A stretch of DNA of 64,000 bases from an uncultured Phycisphaera sp. (GCA_964486335.1 CAZAMB010000005.1:100008-164007), one strand, 5' to 3'. Counted from the first letter of the stretch, positions 851 through 57,906 are shown. Notes: generated by a model not told the origin, from the sequence alone. Numbers and translations: made by a program.

Positions 851-2275
851 TTACCGCCGACGCTTACGTTTGTCTTTCTTGTTGAGCACCCGTTTGCTCG
901 CGGTGGACCCCTTCTTGAAACTGGGCATGGCGCCGCCGGCCATCATTTTCGAGAACTGCGTGCCCATGCGAATGCGCTGAAGGAACGACTGCCCGCTCAT
1001 CATCTTCATCATCTGCCGCATCGGCTCGAACATCTTGACGAGTTGGCTGACTTCTTGCGGATCGGTACCCGAACCGCGTGCGATCCGCCGACGCCGTGAT
1101 GTGTCGATTATCTTGGGATTCTCGCGTTCTTTCGGCGTCATCGACTGAATCACCGCCTCGAATCTCACCATCTCGTCGTCGTCGATCTCCTCGTCGGGGA
1201 TCATCTCGGCCATGCCGGGGATTTTCTTGACAAGGTCCTTCATCGAACCCATCTGCCGCATCTTGCGAAGCTGGAACAGAAAGTCGTCGAGCGTGAACTT
1301 GCCCGTAGCCATCTTGGCTTCGAGCTTTTCGGCTTCGCCCTGGTCGTATTGCCGCTGAGCCTGCTCGACGAGTGTGAGAATGTCGCCCATGCCCAGAATG
1401 CGGCCCGCGACGCGGTCGGCATGGAACTCCTCGATCGCCTCCATCTTCTCGCCGACGCCGATGAACTTGATCGGTTTGCCGGTAACGCGTTTGACGGAGA
1501 GCGCCGCACCGCCGCGCGTGTCGCTGTCAAACTTGGTGAGAATCACGCCGTCGAGTTCGAGCCGCTCGTTGAACACTTTGGCCGTGTTCACCGCATCCTG
1601 ACCGGTCATCGCGTCGAGGACGAGGTAGACCTGCTGAGGACTGACGGCCTGCGCGACTTTTTGAAGCTCGCCCATCAGGTCTTCGTCGATGGCGAGACGT
1701 CCGGCCGTGTCGAGGATCACCACGTCGCGGTCAGTCTTTCGCGCTTCGGCGATTCCGTTACGGCACACCTTGACGGCGTTCTGGTGGCCGCGCTCGGTGT
1801 ACACCGGCACGCCGACCTGTCCGCCGATGACTTCGAGTTGGTCGATCGCCGCCGGGCGCTTGAGGTCGGCGGCCACGAGCAGCGGACGCTTCGCTCTCCC
1901 GAGCAGCATCTTGGCCATTTTTCCGCAGGTGGTGGTCTTGCCGGAGCCTTGCAGTCCGGCCATCAGCAATACCGTCGGACCGGGAGCGATGAAGGGAATC
2001 TTTGGATCGACCGGGCCCATGAGCCGGACGAGTTCGTCATGGACGATCTTGACCATGACCTCAGCGGGCTTGAGGGTCTTGATGACCTCGGCGCCGATCG
2101 CTTTCTGCTGGACTTCGTCGCAAAACTGCCGGGCGACTTCGAGATTGACGTCGGCTTCGAGCAGCGCGGTGCGAATCTCGCGCATCACCTCGGTGACGTT
2201 GGCTTCGGAGATCTTCCCCCGCCCGCGAAGTCCGCGAAACACGTCGTTGAGCTTGTTTGTCAGGACGTCAAACAT
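851..2275 (-). CDS. ffh: signal recognition particle protein Ffh (SRP54 GTPase)
   Basis: 474 aa. N-domain, G-domain with GLQGSGKTTT P-loop and DTAGR motif; Met-rich C-terminal M-domain. Unambiguous family match from sequence. Confidence 0.95.
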   Translation of the reverse strand: MFDVLTNKLNDVFRGLRGRGKISEANVTEVMREIRTALLEADVNLEVARQFCDEVQQKAIGAEVIKTLKPAEVMVKIVHDELVRLMGPVDPKIPFIAPGPTVLLMAGLQGSGKTTTCGKMAKMLLGRAKRPLLVAADLKRPAAIDQLEVIGGQVGVPVYTERGHQNAVKVCRNGIAEARKTDRDVVILDTAGRLAIDEDLMGELQKVAQAVSPQQVYLVLDAMTGQDAVNTAKVFNERLELDGVILTKFDSDTRGGAALSVKRVTGKPIKFIGVGEKMEAIEEFHADRVAGRILGMGDILTLVEQAQRQYDQGEAEKLEAKMATGKFTLDDFLFQLRKMRQMGSMKDLVKKIPGMAEMIPDEEIDDDEMVRFEAVIQSMTPKERENPKIIDTSRRRRIARGSGTDPQEVSQLVKMFEPMRQMMKMMSGQSFLQRIRMGTQFSKMMAGGAMPSFKKGSTASKRVLNKKDKRKRRR

Positions 2276-2411
2276 GGCGAGATGTTGTAGGTCGCGCCGA
2301 ACGCGGGGTCAAGCACGGTGACGCGGACGCAACGCTCACGAAATTGTCGTACAAGTTGATACGACGATCTCTGTTCCCTCGCATTCGCTCTGCTTGAGAG
2401 CAGTTGGCAAC

Positions 2412-2576
2412 CTACTTGGGAGATTTGCGCGGATGTTCCTGGCGGTTTCGAAGCTCGTCGGTCCTCTTGCGCCAGAACTCCAATTCCTGTTGCGGCGTCA
2501 TCCCGGCAATCTGGTTTCGCACATGCTCGGCTCCACGACGCTTCATTTCGACGCAATCAAATGTCTTTTTCTTCAT
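2412..2576 (-). CDS. small basic protein (54 aa, MKKKTFDCVEMKRRGAEHVRNQIAGMTPQQELEFWRKRTDELRNRQ...) overlapping the 3' end of the PIN gene; possible cognate partner of the PIN protein
   Basis: ATG at 2576, stop TAG at 2414..2412; overlaps the PIN stop codon by 20 nt in a different frame. Below the 60 aa cutoff of the ORF track. No family recognised. Confidence 0.35.
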   Translation of the reverse strand: MKKKTFDCVEMKRRGAEHVRNQIAGMTPQQELEFWRKRTDELRNRQEHPRKSPK

Positions 2577-3030
2577 ACTCGATGACCTCGCGCGGCGAAT
2601 GAATCGCCAGAGCTGGAAGCCCCCGAAGCGAATTCACCGCATTATAGAGCGGAATCTTGCTGAAGTGAACAATGTGCTGAAAGTTCCAACTGACAATCGT
2701 TGGGCAACGCGAAACGGTCGCGAGTGCCACGTAGAGAGCATCATCGGCCGAGCGCCTGGTCAGAATTCCGGCGTCGAGGTACGCATCTCGCAGCGCAAGT
2801 GCTTCAGCCGTGGTCTCGACTACTCTGGCGAATGCGGCCATTTCCTCGAAAAGCCGCCGAACGTCCGGTGGCGCCGGCTCGATTTCCGCCTGCACCACGC
2901 CGGATGTGACAAGTTCAAACTTCCCGAGCCGAACCTGATCAAAGAAGAGGATGCTCGTCTCGGCGAATTCAGGATCGAATGGACCACCGAAAACCGACGT
3001 ATCCGCATAGATTCGAAGCGGCTCTTTCAA
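2557..3030 (-). CDS. PIN-domain protein (VapC-like putative ribonuclease toxin)
   Basis: 157 aa. N-terminal IYADTSVFGG acidic motif and C-terminal IVSWNFQHIVHF are typical of PIN domains. Start codon is TTG (cat ttg aaa gag = L K E on the minus strand). Confidence 0.8.
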   Translation of the reverse strand: MKEPLRIYADTSVFGGPFDPEFAETSILFFDQVRLGKFELVTSGVVQAEIEPAPPDVRRLFEEMAAFARVVETTAEALALRDAYLDAGILTRRSADDALYVALATVSRCPTIVSWNFQHIVHFSKIPLYNAVNSLRGLPALAIHSPREVIEYEEKDI

Positions 3031-3158
3031 ATGGACTCATCCGGTTTTGAGGGTTCGTTTCTGACCTGCTCCCCCGGTGGGTTGGACCCTTGAGTCAATT
3101 CCCGTCCGCGAAGTCCGCGAAACACGTCGTTGTGTTTGTTTGTCAGGGCGTCGAACAT
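3027..3158 (-). pseudogene. remnant duplicate of the ffh 5' end (MFDALTNKHNDVFRGLRGREL..., 43 codons) ending in a stop that overlaps the PIN TTG start
   Basis: Translation of the minus strand from ATG at 3158 gives MFDALTNKHNDVFRGLRG. The genuine Ffh N-terminus is MFDVLTNKLNDVFRGLRG. The frame then diverges and stops at 3029..3027. Confidence 0.5.
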
Positions 3159-3250
3159 TAAGGAATGTTGTACGGCCGCACCGAGCCAATGGTCAAGATG
3201 CTATAGGGGGCGCGGACGAAAATCAGCAGGACACGGTCGCGGTGATTATT
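3098..3250. repeat. diverged direct-repeat copy B of the ffh start-codon plus upstream region (copy A at about 2205..2350)
   Basis: The first ~75 nt align at about 85% identity, e.g. ccgcgaagtccgcgaaacacgtcgttg is identical in both. Homology continues upstream with indels (ggtcaag..gcgcggacg). Confidence 0.7.
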
Positions 3251-3258
3251 CCGGATGA

Positions 3259-4077
3259 TTAATGGTCCGGCGCTTTCAGTTTCGTGACCGCCGGTTCAAA
3301 GGGATTCCCACACTCGGAACACCGATGTTCGGGAAGTCCGAACAGGTCATATCCGCACTTGTTGCAGTGCCCCGGCGGGTAGATCGGGCGATAGCGGTTT
3401 CGAAAAAACACGACCACGGAAATCACGGCGAATGGTACAAGCAAAAAAGGGAACACGGAATAAGAAACGTAATAGAGGGCATCTCGCAGCGTAACGATTC
3501 CGCGAAAAAACGCCAAATGCCACCGCCATGAACTGAGGCACAATCCCAACAACGCAAATGCACTATTCCATGCGACCGATTTGATCGAACGAAGCGGCCA
3601 ACAAAGTATACCGAGTCCCAACGTATAAACTCCAAGAAAGAGACTCGTCAATAGGTACGTATGAATGTCGAGTAAGAGTTGTCCCGCCGCGCCGCTGACG
3701 ACGCGAAATCCGACACCATACAAGAACGCCGCGAGAAGGCGACGTCGCCACAGGAACATCAAGGCCGACCGGGTGAATCTCCCAAGACGCGCAAAGAGGC
3801 GCAGATAAACCGATTCGTCGAACATGCCGGGAAAGTGATTGGAGCGACTCTCGATCCCGCGTCGACGGGCTTCGGCTTGCAAAATGCCGAGTATTTCTTG
3901 CGAAAGATCAGACGGATCGGCCAACCCGCGCACCACGTCGTCGTCGGTTGCATTTCGCCATGCCTCGACGAGTTCGCTTTGACTTTGGTCGCCTATCAAA
4001 GTCTGACCCATTCGGCGTCGGCATCGGTACTTAACGAGGAAGTGCGGCACCGATTCTCTCTTCGTTTGGTACGCCAT
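3259..4077 (-). CDS. hypothetical multi-pass membrane protein with C-terminal zinc-ribbon (CNKCGYDL..CSECG)
   Basis: 272 aa. Several hydrophobic segments and a C-terminal CxxC..CxxC motif. No family assignment possible by eye. Confidence 0.55.
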   Translation of the reverse strand: MAYQTKRESVPHFLVKYRCRRRMGQTLIGDQSQSELVEAWRNATDDDVVRGLADPSDLSQEILGILQAEARRRGIESRSNHFPGMFDESVYLRLFARLGRFTRSALMFLWRRRLLAAFLYGVGFRVVSGAAGQLLLDIHTYLLTSLFLGVYTLGLGILCWPLRSIKSVAWNSAFALLGLCLSSWRWHLAFFRGIVTLRDALYYVSYSVFPFLLVPFAVISVVVFFRNRYRPIYPPGHCNKCGYDLFGLPEHRCSECGNPFEPAVTKLKAPDH

Positions 4078-4207
4078 CGTTAATGAAAACGTCTATGGCC
4101 ATCTTGAGTTCTCGAAAGACCTGTTGTCGCCCTTGAAGGGAACATGGACAACGCTAGGCGCTACATGATATGATGAATACGTGCGCTCAGCAAAGAAATC
4201 TTCGGAC

Positions 4208-4450
4208 ATGGAGTGGATGGTCCGTCTCAAGCTCGAAGCCCTTGATGAGGGCGGCTATCTGGCTACGAGTCCGGATATTCAGGGCCTGCTCGCGCAGGGA
4301 TCCACCATCGCCGAGACCATGGAAATCGCCCGTGACGTGGCTCGGAAGATTATCGAAAGCTGCCTCGCCCACGGCGATCCACTTCCCAAACCCAAGCGAC
4401 GCAAGACCCACTCCCTGCAAGCCGTGGTTCCCGTCACGGTGGTCGCATGA
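4208..4450 (+). CDS. hicB: HicB-family antitoxin
   Basis: MVRLKLEALDEGGYLATSPDIQGLLAQGSTIAETMEIARDVARKII matches the HicB N-terminal RNase-H-like fold pattern (GGY..PD..G....G.T.EE......A). Stop TGA overlaps the hicA ATG (ATGA). Confidence 0.8.
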   Translation: MEWMVRLKLEALDEGGYLATSPDIQGLLAQGSTIAETMEIARDVARKIIESCLAHGDPLPKPKRRKTHSLQAVVPVTVVA

Positions 4451-4653
4451 CCTATCGCGAACTGGTTCGCAAGCTTCGTGCGGCCGGTTTCCAATTTGAC
4501 CGTTCCGCCGCCGGCAGCCACGAAATCTGGTATCACCCCGTAAAGCGACTTCGCACAACGGTTCCCAACCATCCTGGTGATCTTCCAACGGGTACGCTTC
4601 GCGCCATCATTCGACAGACCGGGCTGACGAAGAGAGAGTTTGAATCGTTGTGA
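4447..4653 (+). CDS. hicA: HicA-family mRNA interferase toxin
   Basis: 68 aa, MTYRELVRKLRAAGFQFDRSAAGSHEIWYHP, the YcfA/HicA dsRBD-like signature including the GSH motif. Confidence 0.85.
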   Translation: MTYRELVRKLRAAGFQFDRSAAGSHEIWYHPVKRLRTTVPNHPGDLPTGTLRAIIRQTGLTKREFESL

Positions 4654-4843
4654 TCCTGGTCAAGCGATTGCCGTCAACGCTTACAGCATCTCTCGCAACT
4701 TGCGTTTCGCCAAACCTCGACGAACTTGTCGTGCATTTGTTCGACCATCAATGCCTGACCCAAGCGGCGTCATCATCAGCGCCTGTCGTCCATGGGGCAC
4801 GCCCGGCCAGAGTTGAAATGGCCGACCACGCGCGGAGAAGATT

Positions 4844-5923
4844 CTATTCACAGCGACCGGCTGCGGCGATTCGCTCTTTAAGATCGGCGACTTCGCGTTC
4901 CAGATCCTTGATTCGCTTGATCCACTCCGGCAGCCGAGGAAACACGGCCATGGCCCGCTTGGCTTCGTCGATCGGCATGGCCGGCGATCCGAAAACCTTG
5001 GCACCCGGTTCAATGTTCCCCGAGATGCCCGACTGCGCCGCGACCGTGGCGTCATCACCGATCGACAAGTGGCCGGCAACGCCGACCTGGCCCGCGAGCG
5101 TGACGTGTCGTCCGACGGTCACCGATCCCGCCACGCCGATCAATCCCACGAAAAGGCAATCCGGGCCGACCTTGCTCCCGTGGCCGATGACGATCACGTT
5201 GCCGAACTTGGTTCCGGCGCCGATTTCCGTTTTGCCGAGCGTCGCGCGGTCGATTGTGCAATTCGCACCGATTTCGACATCCTCGCCAATGACCGCGCGG
5301 CCGACCTGCGGAATCTTGACCCACTTCTGTCCATGAGGTGCGTACCCGAGGCCGTCTTCGCCGATAACCGAACCCGCGTGAATGGTCACGCGATGACTGA
5401 TAAGCGATCCGTCGTATACGACGACATTGGGAAACAGCGTGCATCGATGGCCGATGCTCGCGCCTTCGCCGATGTAACATCCCGGGTAGATCGTGCAATC
5501 ATCGCCGATGGACACTCCGGCCTCGATGGTCACGCCGGCGGCAATGTTCGCGTTCTTCCCAACGGTAGCGGTCGGGTCGATGGTCGCTCCCTCGGAGATT
5601 CCCCATCGGGGATGCCGCCGATGGCCGTGCAACGTGATGATGGCAACGGTAATCGCGCCGTAAGGGTCAGCGCACCTTAGCACGGGCAATCCGGGTGGAA
5701 CTTCAACTTTCTCACCCACCACCACCGCCGACGCCTTGGTTACGCCCAGCCGATCGAGGTACTTCGGATTGGCAAGGAAGCTGATTTCGCCTTCACGGGC
5801 ATCGTCGAGCGTGTTGACCGCCGTGATTGTTGTATCCGAACCATCCAACCTGGCGGAAAAACCATTTGCAATGAGCACGTGGCAGAGTTCAGATAATTGC
5901 ATCAGGTTCCCTAGTTGGCCCAA
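4844..5923 (-). CDS. lpxD: UDP-3-O-(3-hydroxyacyl)glucosamine N-acyltransferase LpxD
   Basis: 359 aa. Extensive hexapeptide (left-handed beta-helix) repeats (IGANCTIDRATLG, VIGHGSKVG) and N-terminal LpxD domain. Confidence 0.9.
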   Translation of the reverse strand: MGQLGNLMQLSELCHVLIANGFSARLDGSDTTITAVNTLDDAREGEISFLANPKYLDRLGVTKASAVVVGEKVEVPPGLPVLRCADPYGAITVAIITLHGHRRHPRWGISEGATIDPTATVGKNANIAAGVTIEAGVSIGDDCTIYPGCYIGEGASIGHRCTLFPNVVVYDGSLISHRVTIHAGSVIGEDGLGYAPHGQKWVKIPQVGRAVIGEDVEIGANCTIDRATLGKTEIGAGTKFGNVIVIGHGSKVGPDCLFVGLIGVAGSVTVGRHVTLAGQVGVAGHLSIGDDATVAAQSGISGNIEPGAKVFGSPAMPIDEAKRAMAVFPRLPEWIKRIKDLEREVADLKERIAAAGRCE

Positions 5924-56931: not shown

Positions 56932-57906
56932 ATGCGACTGGGGACGATGGGTCTGATTGGTCTGTTCACGATCCTCGCGGGAAAAGCCGACGGCGGACTC
57001 ATCATCACGCTCGACGCGCGGGATTCCGCGGGGATGCCATTTGCGTCGCCCGCGACGGCGGGCACAACCGCGCGAGTAGGCATCCTGCTTTCAACCGATG
57101 GTGCGGATGATCCGCTTCCCGACCTGCGCGGCCTCCAGTTCGATTTCTCGGGCACAAGTTCGAGCATTTTGGTGAATTCGTTCGCATGGTCGGTCAATGA
57201 GGATGTCTATGCATTTCGCACGACGGCGCCGCCGAATGTTTCGGCGATTACGCTGCTCTTGGCGAGTTCATCAACGCTGCTGACGTTGACGGGAACCCCG
57301 GTGCAGGTCGCGTCGGTGGACATCACGGTGAATGGAACCGGCACACTTGATGTGCGTAACACGGCCGCGCCTGACACCAACACTTCGGCCTGGTTTCGCG
57401 CCGGATTCGCGACGTCGATGGAATTCTCACTGATTCACGGAAACCTCACGGGCGGCACGCTGGACATCGCGGTTCCCGGGACGGTTGATCCCGGTCCCGT
57501 TGGTGGTGGCGGAGGCGGCGGTTCGGGAGGCGGTGATCCGGCGACAACCGATTCCGACTCCGACGGCGTGGTCGACGCCGACGATGCGTTTCCCGACGAT
57601 CCAACCGAAACGATGGACACCGACAACAACGGCGTCGGCAACAATAACGATCCCGACGACGACGGCGACGGTGTGGACGACGCAGACGATGCGTTTCCGA
57701 TCGATCCTGCGGAAACGACCGACACCGACGGCGACGGCATCGGCGACAACGCCGATCCGGATACAGGCGGAGGCATCATCAACAATCCGCCCCCCAACTC
57801 GGCGCCGCGCATGTGCGGTTTCGGCATGGTCGGCCCGACCTTGCTTTTATTTGTCAGTCTCGCCGCGGTCCGATCGCAACGGTACCGGCCGAACAGACAC
57901 GGCTGA
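56932..57906 (+). CDS. secreted protein with thrombospondin-type-3-like Ca-binding Asp-rich repeats and PEP-CTERM-like C-terminal anchor
   Basis: Signal peptide MRLGTMGLIGLFTILAG. Repeats DTDNNGVGNNNDPDDDGDGVDDADDAFP / DTDGDGIGDNADPD. C-terminus PRMCGFGMVGPTLLLFVSLAAVRSQRYRP. Confidence 0.65.
   Translation: MRLGTMGLIGLFTILAGKADGGLIITLDARDSAGMPFASPATAGTTARVGILLSTDGADDPLPDLRGLQFDFSGTSSSILVNSFAWSVNEDVYAFRTTAPPNVSAITLLLASSSTLLTLTGTPVQVASVDITVNGTGTLDVRNTAAPDTNTSAWFRAGFATSMEFSLIHGNLTGGTLDIAVPGTVDPGPVGGGGGGGSGGGDPATTDSDSDGVVDADDAFPDDPTETMDTDNNGVGNNNDPDDDGDGVDDADDAFPIDPAETTDTDGDGIGDNADPDTGGGIINNPPPNSAPRMCGFGMVGPTLLLFVSLAAVRSQRYRPNRHG

Follow-up and report, generated by a model that had tools for sequence, protein, structure and literature searches.

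A putative PIN-domain toxin cassette between two diverged copies of the ffh start region, an apparently recurrent landing site for toxin–antitoxin genes in Phycisphaerae

The window analyzed here, a stretch of 64,000 nucleotides from an uncultured Phycisphaera sp., encodes on its minus strand an intact Ffh/SRP54 protein (ffh, 851..2275; 474 aa) that contains the Pfam domains SRP54_N, SRP54 and SRP_SPB (E = 1e-23 to 1e-72) and shows 73–92% amino acid identity to its orthologues in other Phycisphaerae loci. Sequence alignment shows that the ffh promoter, the start codon and the first 19 codons are present in the window as two diverged copies, both on the minus strand. Copy A (2218..2340) consists of ffh codons 1–19 (2275-2218), promoter A and about 28 nt further upstream, whereas copy B (3101..3230) consists of ffh codons 1–19, promoter B and about 30 nt of upstream sequence, and adjoins the stop codon (3259) of the gene we denote mem272. 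The core of the repeat is an ungapped segment of 72 nt with 86% identity (2218-2289 vs 3101-3172); blastn aligned 97 nt (2218-2313 vs 3101-3197; 81.4% identity, E = 1.2e-18), and gapped alignment traces a weaker similarity for another 25–30 nt or so past the -35 box, to approximately 2340 and 3230. The start-to-start distance between the two copies is 883 nt. According to the original prediction, about 150 bp around the ffh start are doubled, with approximately 85% identity over the first 75 nt; the similarity between 2205..2350 and 3098..3250 was reproduced by alignment, but the repeat unit is slightly shorter, about 125–130 nt, spanning roughly positions -65 to +58 with respect to the ATG. 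An assembly artefact is not an obvious explanation for the duplication because the identical locus is found in a second, independent assembly (a Logan SRR14787580 contig), and is further disfavored by the recurrence of the architecture in contigs from different samples (L163 from ENA and L164 from JGI; here and below, L numbers denote the compared loci). When the whole window was scanned for direct repeats with a minimum length of 35 nt and a maximum spacing of 4 kb, five families emerged, and just two of these bracket a gene cassette, namely the A/B pair and a pair derived from the 5' end of mem272.

The order of open reading frames originally described, that is, ffh, a small ORF, a PIN-like ORF and a remnant ORF, all on the minus strand, was recovered, and so was the 0.8-kb cassette formed by the PIN gene and the small ORF downstream of it between the two ffh promoter/start copies; these are the only genes between the repeats, with no transposase, integrase or other mobile element. 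The PIN gene (2557..3030, minus strand, TTG start) encodes a VapC-like protein of 157 aa that scores below the threshold for the Pfam PIN family PF01850 (19.4 bits where 23.6 is required; E = 0.0017). Its 1347 homologues are patchily spread across phyla, and several are named 'VapC family toxin', while some carry PF01850 or PF13470. The protein has, as judged from its AF2 model (pLDDT 89), a PIN (Rossmann-like) nuclease fold, with VapC2, VapC15, FitB and VapC11 being the top matches in a Foldseek search against the PDB (probability 1.0, TM 0.55–0.63). Of the acidic active-site residues typical of the family (usually D, E, D, D), D10 is nearly invariant and E49 and D97 are invariant among 31 homologues, and what appears to be the position of the fourth acidic residue is occupied by an invariant asparagine, N116. 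We refer to this protein as a putative toxin. The small ORF (2412..2576, minus strand; 54 aa) overlaps the PIN gene by 20 nt and follows it with the same overlap of about 20 nt in all contexts examined, and its product is presumed to be the antitoxin. All of its 71 homologues are unnamed and none contains a Pfam domain; the family is characterized by the invariant FDCVEM..RGA motif and W35, and the AF2 model is a two-helix hairpin (pLDDT 87.5) that found no match in a fold search of the PDB. Scans of NCBIfam and PADLOC with the PIN protein, the small ORF and mem272 gave no matches, and sequence searches of the PDB with the small ORF and with a profile of the PIN protein returned nothing useful.

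Both copies of the repeat retain the promoter motif TTGACC-N17/18-TACAAC located 8 nt ahead of the ATG. On the minus strand, promoter A consists of a -10 box TACAAC at 2289-2284 and a -35 box TTGACC at 2312-2307 (17-nt spacer), and promoter B of the same boxes at 3172-3167 and 3196-3191, respectively (18-nt spacer); thus, copy B has the intact-looking promoter and start codon that had been attributed to it. A generic promoter scan, which demands a T at the last position of the -10 box, misses the TACAAC hexamer of ffh, so the motif conserved across relatives was used instead. As a regular expression, this motif matches copies A and B alone in the 64-kb window, and it precedes ffh in 25 of 43 relatives. 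The short distance from the promoter to the ATG would imply a leaderless or nearly leaderless mRNA. The ORF that starts in copy B (3027..3158, minus strand; 43 codons) reads MFDALTNKHNDVFRGLRG... and consists of ffh codons 1–19/20 (3158-3101) followed by 23 codons from the sequence upstream of PIN. The proposal that the PIN gene is preceded by a 43-codon leader derived from ffh accordingly holds for only about 19–20 codons, the other 23 being unrelated to ffh. The predicted overlap of the TGA of this leader ORF with the TTG start of the PIN gene (TTGA) is borne out, and similar arrangements are found in relatives: counting the window, five lineages out of six have a remnant ORF whose stop overlaps the toxin start (ATGA in L163/L164 and L169) or lies 1 nt ahead of it (L007 and L094). 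Each remnant retains an intact ATG and intact -35 and -10 boxes, and the spacers vary. At the other end of the cassette, the spacer past the stop codon of the small ORF (2318..2411, minus strand) is predicted to form hairpins, one of which is followed by AAUUUCG (-34.7 kcal/mol; z = -2.9 against shuffled sequences), and might separate the cassette from promoter A as a weak terminator or insulator.

The mem272 gene (3259..4077, minus strand; probable true start at 4014) encodes a membrane protein with a C-terminal zinc ribbon and is lineage-restricted, with just 8 homologues. It is the native upstream neighbor of ffh, adjoining either ffh or an ffh remnant in L088, L089, L163, L164, L169 and L171. 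This context modifies the suggestion that PIN is expressed from a duplicated ffh promoter: the promoter of copy B indeed looks intact, but copy B is at the native site, lying next to mem272 as the single copy does in the empty-site loci described below. PIN therefore would be served from where the original promoter lay, whereas it would be copy A, beside ffh, that arrived or was created with the cassette. The 5' end of mem272 is itself repeated on the minus strand, with one copy at 3948..4025 (approximately -15 to +63 with respect to the ATG at 4014) and the other, a remnant located just downstream of lpxD, at 4700..4777 (78 nt, 74% identity, blastn E = 1e-6). The remnant translates to LGQALMVEQMHDKFVEVWRNA, with the WRNA motif of the mem272 orthologues retained, and diverges thereafter. 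These repeats bracket, in the same manner as the PIN cassette is bracketed, a HicBA cassette on the plus strand (4145..4653; HicB 4181/4208-4450, HicA 4447-4653) with Pfam matches to HicA (E = 1e-20) and HicB_lk (E = 1e-4), and with its own promoter-like site at 4145-4174 detected by the promoter scan. The homology of this cassette with L002, L003 and L009 begins only about 30 nt before hicB and ceases at the stop codon of hicA. The mem272 remnant is flanked on its upstream side by the housekeeping gene lpxD (4844..5923, minus strand), assigned by Pfam LpxD/Hexapep matches of the identical gene in L001. The Rfam gathering search of the window returned three tRNAs only, none of them near the locus.

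Comparison of the region upstream of ffh in relatives revealed either an empty site or the same remnant design as in the window; in no case was the remnant replaced by an unrelated gene of full length. Empty sites, with the order mem272-promoter-ffh and a single promoter copy beside mem272, were found in L088, L089 and L171, which are distant relatives (about 80% nucleotide identity in ffh). In seven related loci (L007, L085, L086, L094, L163, L164 and L169), ffh and a displaced 5' remnant flank cargo genes. PIN cassettes at ffh codons 14–20 are present in three further contigs from two lineages, with the order mem272, promoter and 20 ffh codons, PIN, small ORF and ffh in L163/L164, and mem272, promoter and 14 ffh codons, and PIN in L169. 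HicAB resides at codon ~89 in two lineages (L007 and L094), where ffh codons 1 to ~89 are followed by HicA-HicB, further genes and ffh, and in L085/L086, codons 1–25 are followed by genes for DUF433, DUF4258 and DUF2283 proteins and by ffh. Across the loci, the ffh repeats extend over 42 to 267 nt, with junctions at codons 14, 20, 25 and ~89. In addition, there are donor-like loci that lack a remnant and carry PIN and the small ORF (L095), HicAB-ORF255 (L003 and L090) or DUF2283 (L022) directly before ffh. Neither the PIN cassette, compared with seven other loci, nor the HicBA cassette, compared with three, has conserved non-coding ends, which argues against transposon- or integron-like ends. 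No recombinase genes were detected in the related islets, the sole mobility gene being an IS200-like Y1 transposase in L085 that is absent in the sister locus L086. Synteny upstream of ffh is highly variable among the relatives. Other direct repeats (L015, L019, L023 and L007 1574/2838) turned out to represent paralogue arrays or to have non-toxin–antitoxin content, and we claim no genome-wide rule. A donor or a close empty-site relative of the window was not found, the nearest ffh being 85% identical at the nucleotide level, and a sliding-window comparison with 14 relatives resolved no mosaic breakpoint in the ffh gene of the window, a test that has no power at these identities (all at most 85%). 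The start of ffh appears to be a recurrent landing site in related bacteria, with the displaced copy reused for toxin expression; a search of the literature on ffh as an island integration site, or on toxin–antitoxin cassettes with flanking duplications, found no direct precedent.

The differences between remnants and functional copies bear on how these arrangements were formed. Pooled over the loci, synonymous differences account for 31 of 36 codons (P = 1.5e-8; an in-situ duplication with a neutral remnant would be expected to give 40%). By locus, the synonymous share is 7/8 in L163, 10/11 in L007, 6/6 in L094, 5/6 in L085 and 3/5 in the window; the bias is significant singly in L163, L007, L094 and L085/L086 (P = 3e-4 to 6e-3 each), and not in the window (P = 0.10 against random mutation and 0.32 against the 40% in-situ expectation) because only five codons differ between A and B, three of them synonymously, one as a natural variant (A/V) and one as a unique change (L9H). 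The Ala4 of copy B is the common allele among relatives. Copy B matches copy A at 53 of 58 nt and any of 42 relatives at no more than 50 of 58, and in a four-point comparison each remnant is nearer to the ffh of its own genome than to the remnant of the other lineage. The synonymous character of the differences in relatives, together with the retained -35 and -10 boxes, suggests that the divergence existed already between two functional alleles and is not the result of decay after a duplication; the original conclusion that an identity of ~85% makes the event not recent is therefore unsafe. On the pooled data, remnant and functional copy resemble a pair of working ffh alleles brought together by recombination more than a target duplication that has decayed. 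The upstream regions of L085 and L086 are 99.8% identical, yet different cargo adjoins ffh, and the two ffh genes differ at 38 positions in nt 1–303 and at just 4 in nt 304–1428, which indicates a recombination tract ending inside ffh. In L007, the divergence at fourfold sites from the empty-site locus L096 is 0.238 for the remnant compared with 0.093 and 0.123 for the flanks, and the remnant promoter is likewise more diverged from L096 than either flank.

We consider it somewhat more probable than its negation that the cassette arrived by recombination anchored in ffh, of the homology-facilitated illegitimate recombination (HFIR) or 'displacement' type that has been proposed for toxin/immunity arrays (PMC5361080), with the two copies representing two alleles. 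This view draws on the place of copy B at the native site, the recurrence of the design, the synonymous bias, the tract within ffh in L085/L086, the donor-like loci and the lack of conserved cassette ends and recombinases. Under this scenario, the two-gene module, VapC-like PIN and its 54-aa partner, would have been placed within the former first ~20 codons of ffh through one homologous crossover inside the highly conserved ffh and a second, illegitimate join at codon ~20. The incoming DNA would have brought its own ffh promoter and start (copy A), so that ffh stayed intact, whereas the resident copy of the promoter and initial 19 codons (copy B) would have been pushed upstream, still beside the old neighbor mem272; the displacement then possibly spread through flanking homology. 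We infer both the direction of the event and the donor. Today, copy A would drive ffh, and the toxin operon is most likely expressed from copy B, where a sigma70-type promoter would drive the 43-codon leader ORF with the stop (TTGA) probably coupled to the PIN start. Several observations speak against this scenario. The synonymous bias is not significant in the window itself, for which neither a donor nor a close empty-site relative was found. Independent events predict no fixed junctions, yet the window and L163 share a PIN junction at codon ~20, L007 and L094 share a HicAB junction at codon ~89, and each remnant groups with the ffh of its own genome. Furthermore, the L007 remnant, being more diverged than its flanks, looks imported rather than resident, so that displacement in a single simple step cannot explain all of the loci. 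Fixed junctions would be expected if the ffh 5' segment and the cassette looped out as a circle via the repeats and re-entered another ffh by a single RecA-type (Campbell) crossover, remaking the same junctions each time and refreshing the ffh segment with host alleles, similar to the life cycle proposed by Kobayashi's group for restriction–modification (RM) systems flanked by long repeats (PMC2853133). Such a cycle would also account for the homologous hicA leader shared by L007 and L094, for junctions that are constant per cassette type in diverged lineages, for the grouping of remnants with the ffh of their own genome, for the synonymous differences and for the beginning of the duplication exactly at the ATG in L163, L007, L086 and L094, and the empty sites are compatible with precise loop-out. 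We still regard it as rather unlikely, given that the homology arms are very short (58–267 nt) and 5–17% diverged, and thus poor RecA substrates; that the promoter and about 240 extra nt of the L007 remnant are foreign compared to L096, contrary to what Campbell insertion at an L096-like site predicts; that the L169 junction is different (codon 14); that the junction-to-PIN spacers are unrelated across the three PIN loci; and that no circular intermediate was seen.

The original prediction implied instead a duplication in situ followed by divergence of initially identical copies. The long target duplication could have been made by staggered breaks or template switching, as proposed for RM systems, for which such insertions without mobility genes are documented (PMC2853133). 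The greater similarity of copy B to copy A than to any of the 42 relatives and the unique L9H change fit this explanation, which we nonetheless deem improbable because a neutral remnant should gain mostly non-synonymous changes and indels, in conflict with the pooled count, because all remnants retain both promoter boxes and the start codon and differ in their spacers, and because Ala4 of copy B is the common allele of relatives and not a random change. The window, L163/L164 and L169 represent three lineages that have diverged to about 48–50% amino acid identity in mem272, 68–77% in PIN and 83% in Ffh, and all have mem272, an ffh remnant and PIN in this order. Alternatively, this shared order could go back to a single ancient insertion that predated the radiation of the mem272-ffh clade and was inherited vertically, with subsequent gene conversion, consistent with remnant and functional copy being more alike within a genome than between genomes, and loss by loop-out in L088, L089 and L171. 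This history has little to commend it to us: it would require many independent losses, the junctions differ among the three lineages (codon 14 vs 20), the junction-to-PIN spacers of 10, 72 and ~85 nt are unrelated in sequence, the ffh-proximal ends are unlike (137 nt with a promoter vs 12 nt), and conversion alone predicts about 40% synonymous differences compared to the ~86% found. Finally, the repeats could be the attL and attR of a relic of a site-specific integrative element that targeted the ffh 5' end and whose integrase was lost or acts in trans. The outcome resembles that at prfC, with the 5' end and promoter of the gene supplied beside the insert and direct repeats flanking the cargo, and ffh is targeted recurrently in many relatives; but with no integrase or recombinase in the islets, junctions scattered over codons 14, 20, 25 and ~89, repeat lengths from 42 to 267 nt and no conserved cassette ends, we give this origin hardly any credence.

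The ffh locus and its relatives are relevant to a broader problem, in that the movement of chromosomal toxin–antitoxin cassettes devoid of mobility genes is poorly understood, and the first 14–90 codons of ffh present a concrete, reused landing site. The footprints at this site are interpretable: functional-looking displaced 5' ends, a recombination tract ending in ffh, and both empty and filled sites. There is also a regulatory consequence: an essential gene has had its promoter and start displaced, and these are apparently recycled as a toxin promoter and coupling leader. In some relatives the essential ffh itself ends up downstream of the toxin operon. A bolder and, in our judgment, doubtful generalization is that small toxin–antitoxin cassettes in these Phycisphaerae are integrase-free 'homing' elements that each bring along the ffh promoter and start, in a short copy, as a portable homology arm, and enter and exit by host homologous recombination. 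Such elements would exploit the ffh promoter, which is taken to be strong and leaderless, by way of a leader peptide that derives from ffh and is translationally coupled to the toxin. On that reading, the cassettes in L163 and L007 leave ffh without its own promoter, so the essential gene would depend on transcription through the toxin operon, and, if true, this would constitute a new route for addiction modules to spread and become entrenched. If confirmed, the findings at ffh would mean that the concepts of 'long target duplication' and 'displacement', developed for RM and polymorphic-toxin loci, apply to ordinary type II toxin–antitoxin modules as well, and would provide a model, open to testing, of how addiction modules become entrenched beside essential genes.

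Among known systems, the cassette itself is closest to VapBC, given that the PIN fold is nearest to VapC and FitB and that both form small operons of two overlapping genes with a wide, patchy distribution. It differs from VapBC in that the toxin gene comes first and the partner lies downstream, whereas the canonical antitoxin, which contains a DNA-binding domain, is encoded upstream; in that the partner is an unannotated, predicted two-helix protein without a recognizable DNA-binding antitoxin fold; and in the sub-threshold Pfam PIN score and the apparent invariant Asn at the fourth acidic position. With regard to location, the SXT/R391 integrative and conjugative elements insert in the 5' coding end of prfC, a conserved gene related to translation, which is tolerated since the element replaces the lost 5' end and promoter with its own. 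At about 100 kb, SXT is large and employs a tyrosine integrase and a fixed 17-bp core, whereas the ffh inserts span 0.75–2.3 kb, lack an integrase and have variable junctions. The minimal mobile elements of Neisseria are variable cassettes at a fixed site that are swapped by homologous recombination in the conserved flanks, without dedicated recombinases; they have two conserved flanks and no partial flank duplication, whereas at our locus ffh is the only conserved flank.

RM gene complexes inserted with a long target duplication (Nobusato et al. 2000; Furuta, Abe & Kobayashi 2010, PMC2853133) are flanked by direct repeats of more than 30 bp and up to about 400 bp that sometimes overlap gene ends, by a mechanism that remains unresolved (PMC2853133). 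The ffh locus shares with them an addiction-type module without mobility genes between long direct repeats, and a repeat of about 125 nt that is present as a single copy at empty sites (L088, L089 and L171, all distant relatives). It departs from them in that the cargo at ffh consists of type II toxin–antitoxin modules, the repeats in the window are 74–86% identical rather than mostly 90–100%, most differences between the ffh repeats of relatives are synonymous, a single essential gene is hit repeatedly at its promoter and 5' end, and the displaced copy of that gene is reused as a toxin promoter and leader. The orphan C-terminal/immunity pairs of Rhs and CdiA and the effector-immunity genes of type VI secretion systems form displacement arrays (HFIR; Kirchberger et al. 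2017, PMC5361080) in which, as at ffh, a toxin module enters via a conserved anchor gene and the displaced piece keeps a fragment of the anchor, giving rise to direct repeats, with one homologous and one illegitimate join proposed. In those arrays, the anchor is the conserved core of the toxin itself and the displaced 3' fragments accumulate downstream, whereas at ffh the anchor is an unrelated essential housekeeping gene whose displaced promoter and 5' end lie upstream and would drive the newcomer.

The minus strand of the window carries ffh (851..2275; strong Pfam match to Ffh), a 54-aa ORF (2412..2576), a 157-aa ORF with a sub-threshold Pfam match to PIN only (2557..3030) and a 43-codon ORF (3027..3158) that starts MFDALTNKHNDVFRGLRG and contains a copy of the ffh 5' end, hereafter the remnant; its TGA stop overlaps the TTG codon at which the 157-aa ORF begins. 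The original prediction placed a PIN gene and a small downstream ORF between two copies, A and B, of the ffh promoter/start segment. Alignment reproduced this repeat, with an ungapped core of 72 nt at 86% identity (2218-2289 versus 3101-3172) and a blastn match of 81.4% over 97 nt (2218-2313 versus 3101-3197; E = 1.2e-18), and both ORFs indeed lie between copies A and B. A fainter likeness continues beyond the blastn-aligned repeat for ~25-30 nt more on the upstream side, giving a repeat unit of ~125-130 nt that, with the ATG as reference, covers roughly -65 to +58. The identical locus is present in an independent assembly. Across the whole window, a scan for direct repeats (minimum length 35 nt, maximum spacing 4 kb) yielded five families, and the pairs that bracket a cassette are the ffh pair and one other only. 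Elsewhere, the gene for a secreted protein of 339 aa, whose acidic repeats are rich in D (DADDAFP.DP.ET.DTD), contains two tandem 105-nt units at 57548-57757 (77% identical), which look like ordinary repeat-protein evolution.

The duplicated segment includes a putative promoter. The motif CTTGACC-N17/18-TA(C/A)AA(C) precedes ffh in 25 of the 43 aligned Phycisphaerae loci, with its end 5-11 nt, mostly 7-10 nt, upstream of the ATG, and the loci without it are mostly those in which another gene abuts the ffh ATG. Within the 64-kb window, the motif matches at two sites only, both on the minus strand: in copy A (2276-2312; -35 box 2312-2307, -10 box 2289-2284) and in copy B (3159-3196; -35 box 3196-3191, -10 box 3172-3167), with identical boxes and different spacers. 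Because 8 nt separate the -10 box from the ATG in the window copies, the mRNA of this essential gene is probably leaderless or nearly so.

Directly upstream of copy B lies mem272; its product, a membrane protein with a zinc ribbon, is restricted to the lineage and has 8 homologues. In three related loci (L088, L089 and L171), mem272 is followed by one promoter and full-length ffh, without a cassette, and, judging from this arrangement, the native position of the ffh promoter is that of copy B. Filled counterparts occur in L163/L164, from two separate samples (mem272, promoter plus 20 ffh codons, PIN, small ORF, 12 nt, ffh), and in L169 (mem272, promoter plus 14 ffh codons, PIN). In L095, the PIN-small ORF pair ends 34 nt before ffh, and no ffh remnant was found in the 80 nt available. 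The 'empty' mem272-ffh spacer of L171 (5727-6090) spans 365 nt and contains short internal repeats (AAACGAAGCCAGTTG twice); it could be the scar of a lost insert. In L019 (3767-6249), genes for small membrane proteins form a tandem array, and at least one of the proteins has a mem272-like C-terminal zinc ribbon (CxxCGY...CPECG).

The cargo itself is widespread. The 157-aa protein has 1347 homologues at 60-76% identity in many phyla, some named 'VapC family toxin', and its AlphaFold model (pLDDT 89) best matches VapC and FitB toxins (Foldseek probability 1.0, TM 0.55-0.63). The family of the 54-aa ORF is unannotated, counts at least 71 members and is marked by an invariant FDCVEM..RGA motif; the ORF product is predicted to form a two-helix hairpin, and the model produced no fold match in the PDB. 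The small ORF lies 3' of the PIN gene with a ~20-nt overlap that is constant in all contexts examined; the two therefore constitute a conserved toxin-first two-gene module, and we infer from the pairing that the 54-aa protein is the antitoxin. Cassettes of different loci have no common non-coding flanks.

Comparison of the related loci identifies the ffh 5' end as an apparent recurrent landing site. In L007, ffh nt 1-267 recur 1.6 kb upstream (96% identity), and HicA, HicB and a 288-aa ORF occupy the interval; the remnant of L094 ends at the same ffh position and is followed by a hicA leader homologous to that of L007. In L085/L086, a remnant of 25 codons precedes DUF433, DUF4258 and DUF2283 genes. 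Small toxin-antitoxin (TA)-like genes frequently abut the ffh ATG (L022, L003, L090, L009), and synteny upstream of ffh is otherwise highly variable among relatives. IS200-like Y1 transposase genes were seen in the ffh islet of L085 (5361-5864), missing from its near-identical sister L086, and adjoining a PIN-small ORF cassette in L166 (676-1353).

Next to the PIN cassette, the window contains a second TA cassette bracketed alike: HicB/HicA genes (4181-4653, plus strand) lie between two 78-nt copies of the mem272 5' end (3948-4025 and 4700-4777; 74% identical). The distal copy, just downstream of lpxD, still encodes the conserved ...FVEVWRNA motif and then diverges. Across four loci, homology of the HicBA cassette covers the genes and ~30 nt of promoter only. 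In one of these relatives' loci, L009, a window-type hicBA lies between 66-nt repeats (1531-1596 and 2390-2455; 92% identical) that correspond to the 3' terminus of another hicB gene, of the L007 type; the cassettes of L009 are nested, with a weakly SIR2-like gene between hicBA and ffh. Bracketing of the same kind may also exist at a non-ffh locus, L162, where direct repeats (85-350 and 2896-3109; up to 77 nt, ~86% identity) enclose a PIN-small ORF cassette together with an array of NTP_transf_2/HEPN pairs (403-2850 in all).

The core of the original prediction, that the PIN gene is expressed through a captured ffh promoter and leader, gains comparative evidence from these loci. Promoter and ATG are kept in every remnant, and in five of six lineages, the window included, the remnant ORF is open up to the toxin start: stop and start overlap as TTGA in the window and as ATGA in L163/L164 and L169, and in L007 and L094 the remnant stop is followed by 1 nt and the toxin ATG. 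The exception is L085/L086, with a ~40-nt gap. That the ORF reaches the toxin even though the stretches linking the ffh codons to the toxin gene are unrelated in sequence and vary in length argues for promoter capture with translational coupling. The functional ffh of L163 and L007 lacks its own promoter motif and is presumably transcribed by read-through from the promoter of the remnant; in the window, cassette and ffh are separated by promoter A and a structured spacer. In several relatives, the cassette gene stops 1-34 nt before the ATG of an ffh without promoter motif (gaps at L163 1417-1428, L007 7990-8000, L095 703-735, L022 7999-8001 and L090 769-777), and there ffh is probably transcribed through the TA operon.

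As for the origin of the two copies, in-situ duplication of the target followed by decay of the remnant predicts that ~60% of the differing codons are non-synonymous. The window, with 3/5 differing codons synonymous, is not significant alone, and one of its two replacements, Ala4 versus Val4, also varies naturally in relatives; against the prediction, synonymous differences account for 7/8 in L163, 10/11 in L007, 5/6 in L085 and 6/6 in L094 (first 27 codons), or 31/36 when these are pooled with the window (P = 1.5e-8). Moreover, the upstream sequences of L085 and L086 share 99.8% identity, their ffh genes show 38 differences in the first 303 nt and 4 in the other 1125 nt, and their cargo beside ffh differs, a pattern indicative of a recombination tract that ends within ffh and moves the adjacent cargo along. 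The synonymous bias and this tract lead us to favour recombination anchored in ffh, by homology-facilitated illegitimate recombination (HFIR)/displacement of the kind suggested for T6SS and Rhs arrays (PMC5361080), which would unite two functional ffh alleles.

Displacement in one simple step does not fit all observations. The PIN junction at codon ~20 is common to the diverged lineages of the window and L163, as is the HicAB junction at codon ~89 to diverged L007 and L094, and despite these shared junctions each remnant resembles the ffh of its own genome. The L007 remnant and promoter are also more diverged from the empty-site relative L096 than either flank (fourfold-site divergence of 0.238 for the remnant versus 0.093 and 0.123 for the flanks). 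These facts leave room for two rivals to one-step displacement: circle/Campbell integration with a 'portable homology arm', and ancient insertion followed by gene conversion. Integration of the integrase type is unlikely, given the variable junctions and the lack of both a recombinase and conserved cassette ends.

Literature searches on ffh as an integration site and on TA cassettes with flanking duplications returned no description of such an arrangement. The nearest described phenomenon is the 'insertion with long target duplication' of restriction-modification gene complexes (PMC2853133); as to mechanism, the model that comes closest is that of HFIR displacement at polymorphic-toxin loci (PMC5361080). 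The present case differs in that the cargo is type II TA, the target is an essential housekeeping gene, used recurrently at its promoter and 5' end, the repeats appear to be allelic in nature, and the displaced copy appears to be reused for toxin expression.
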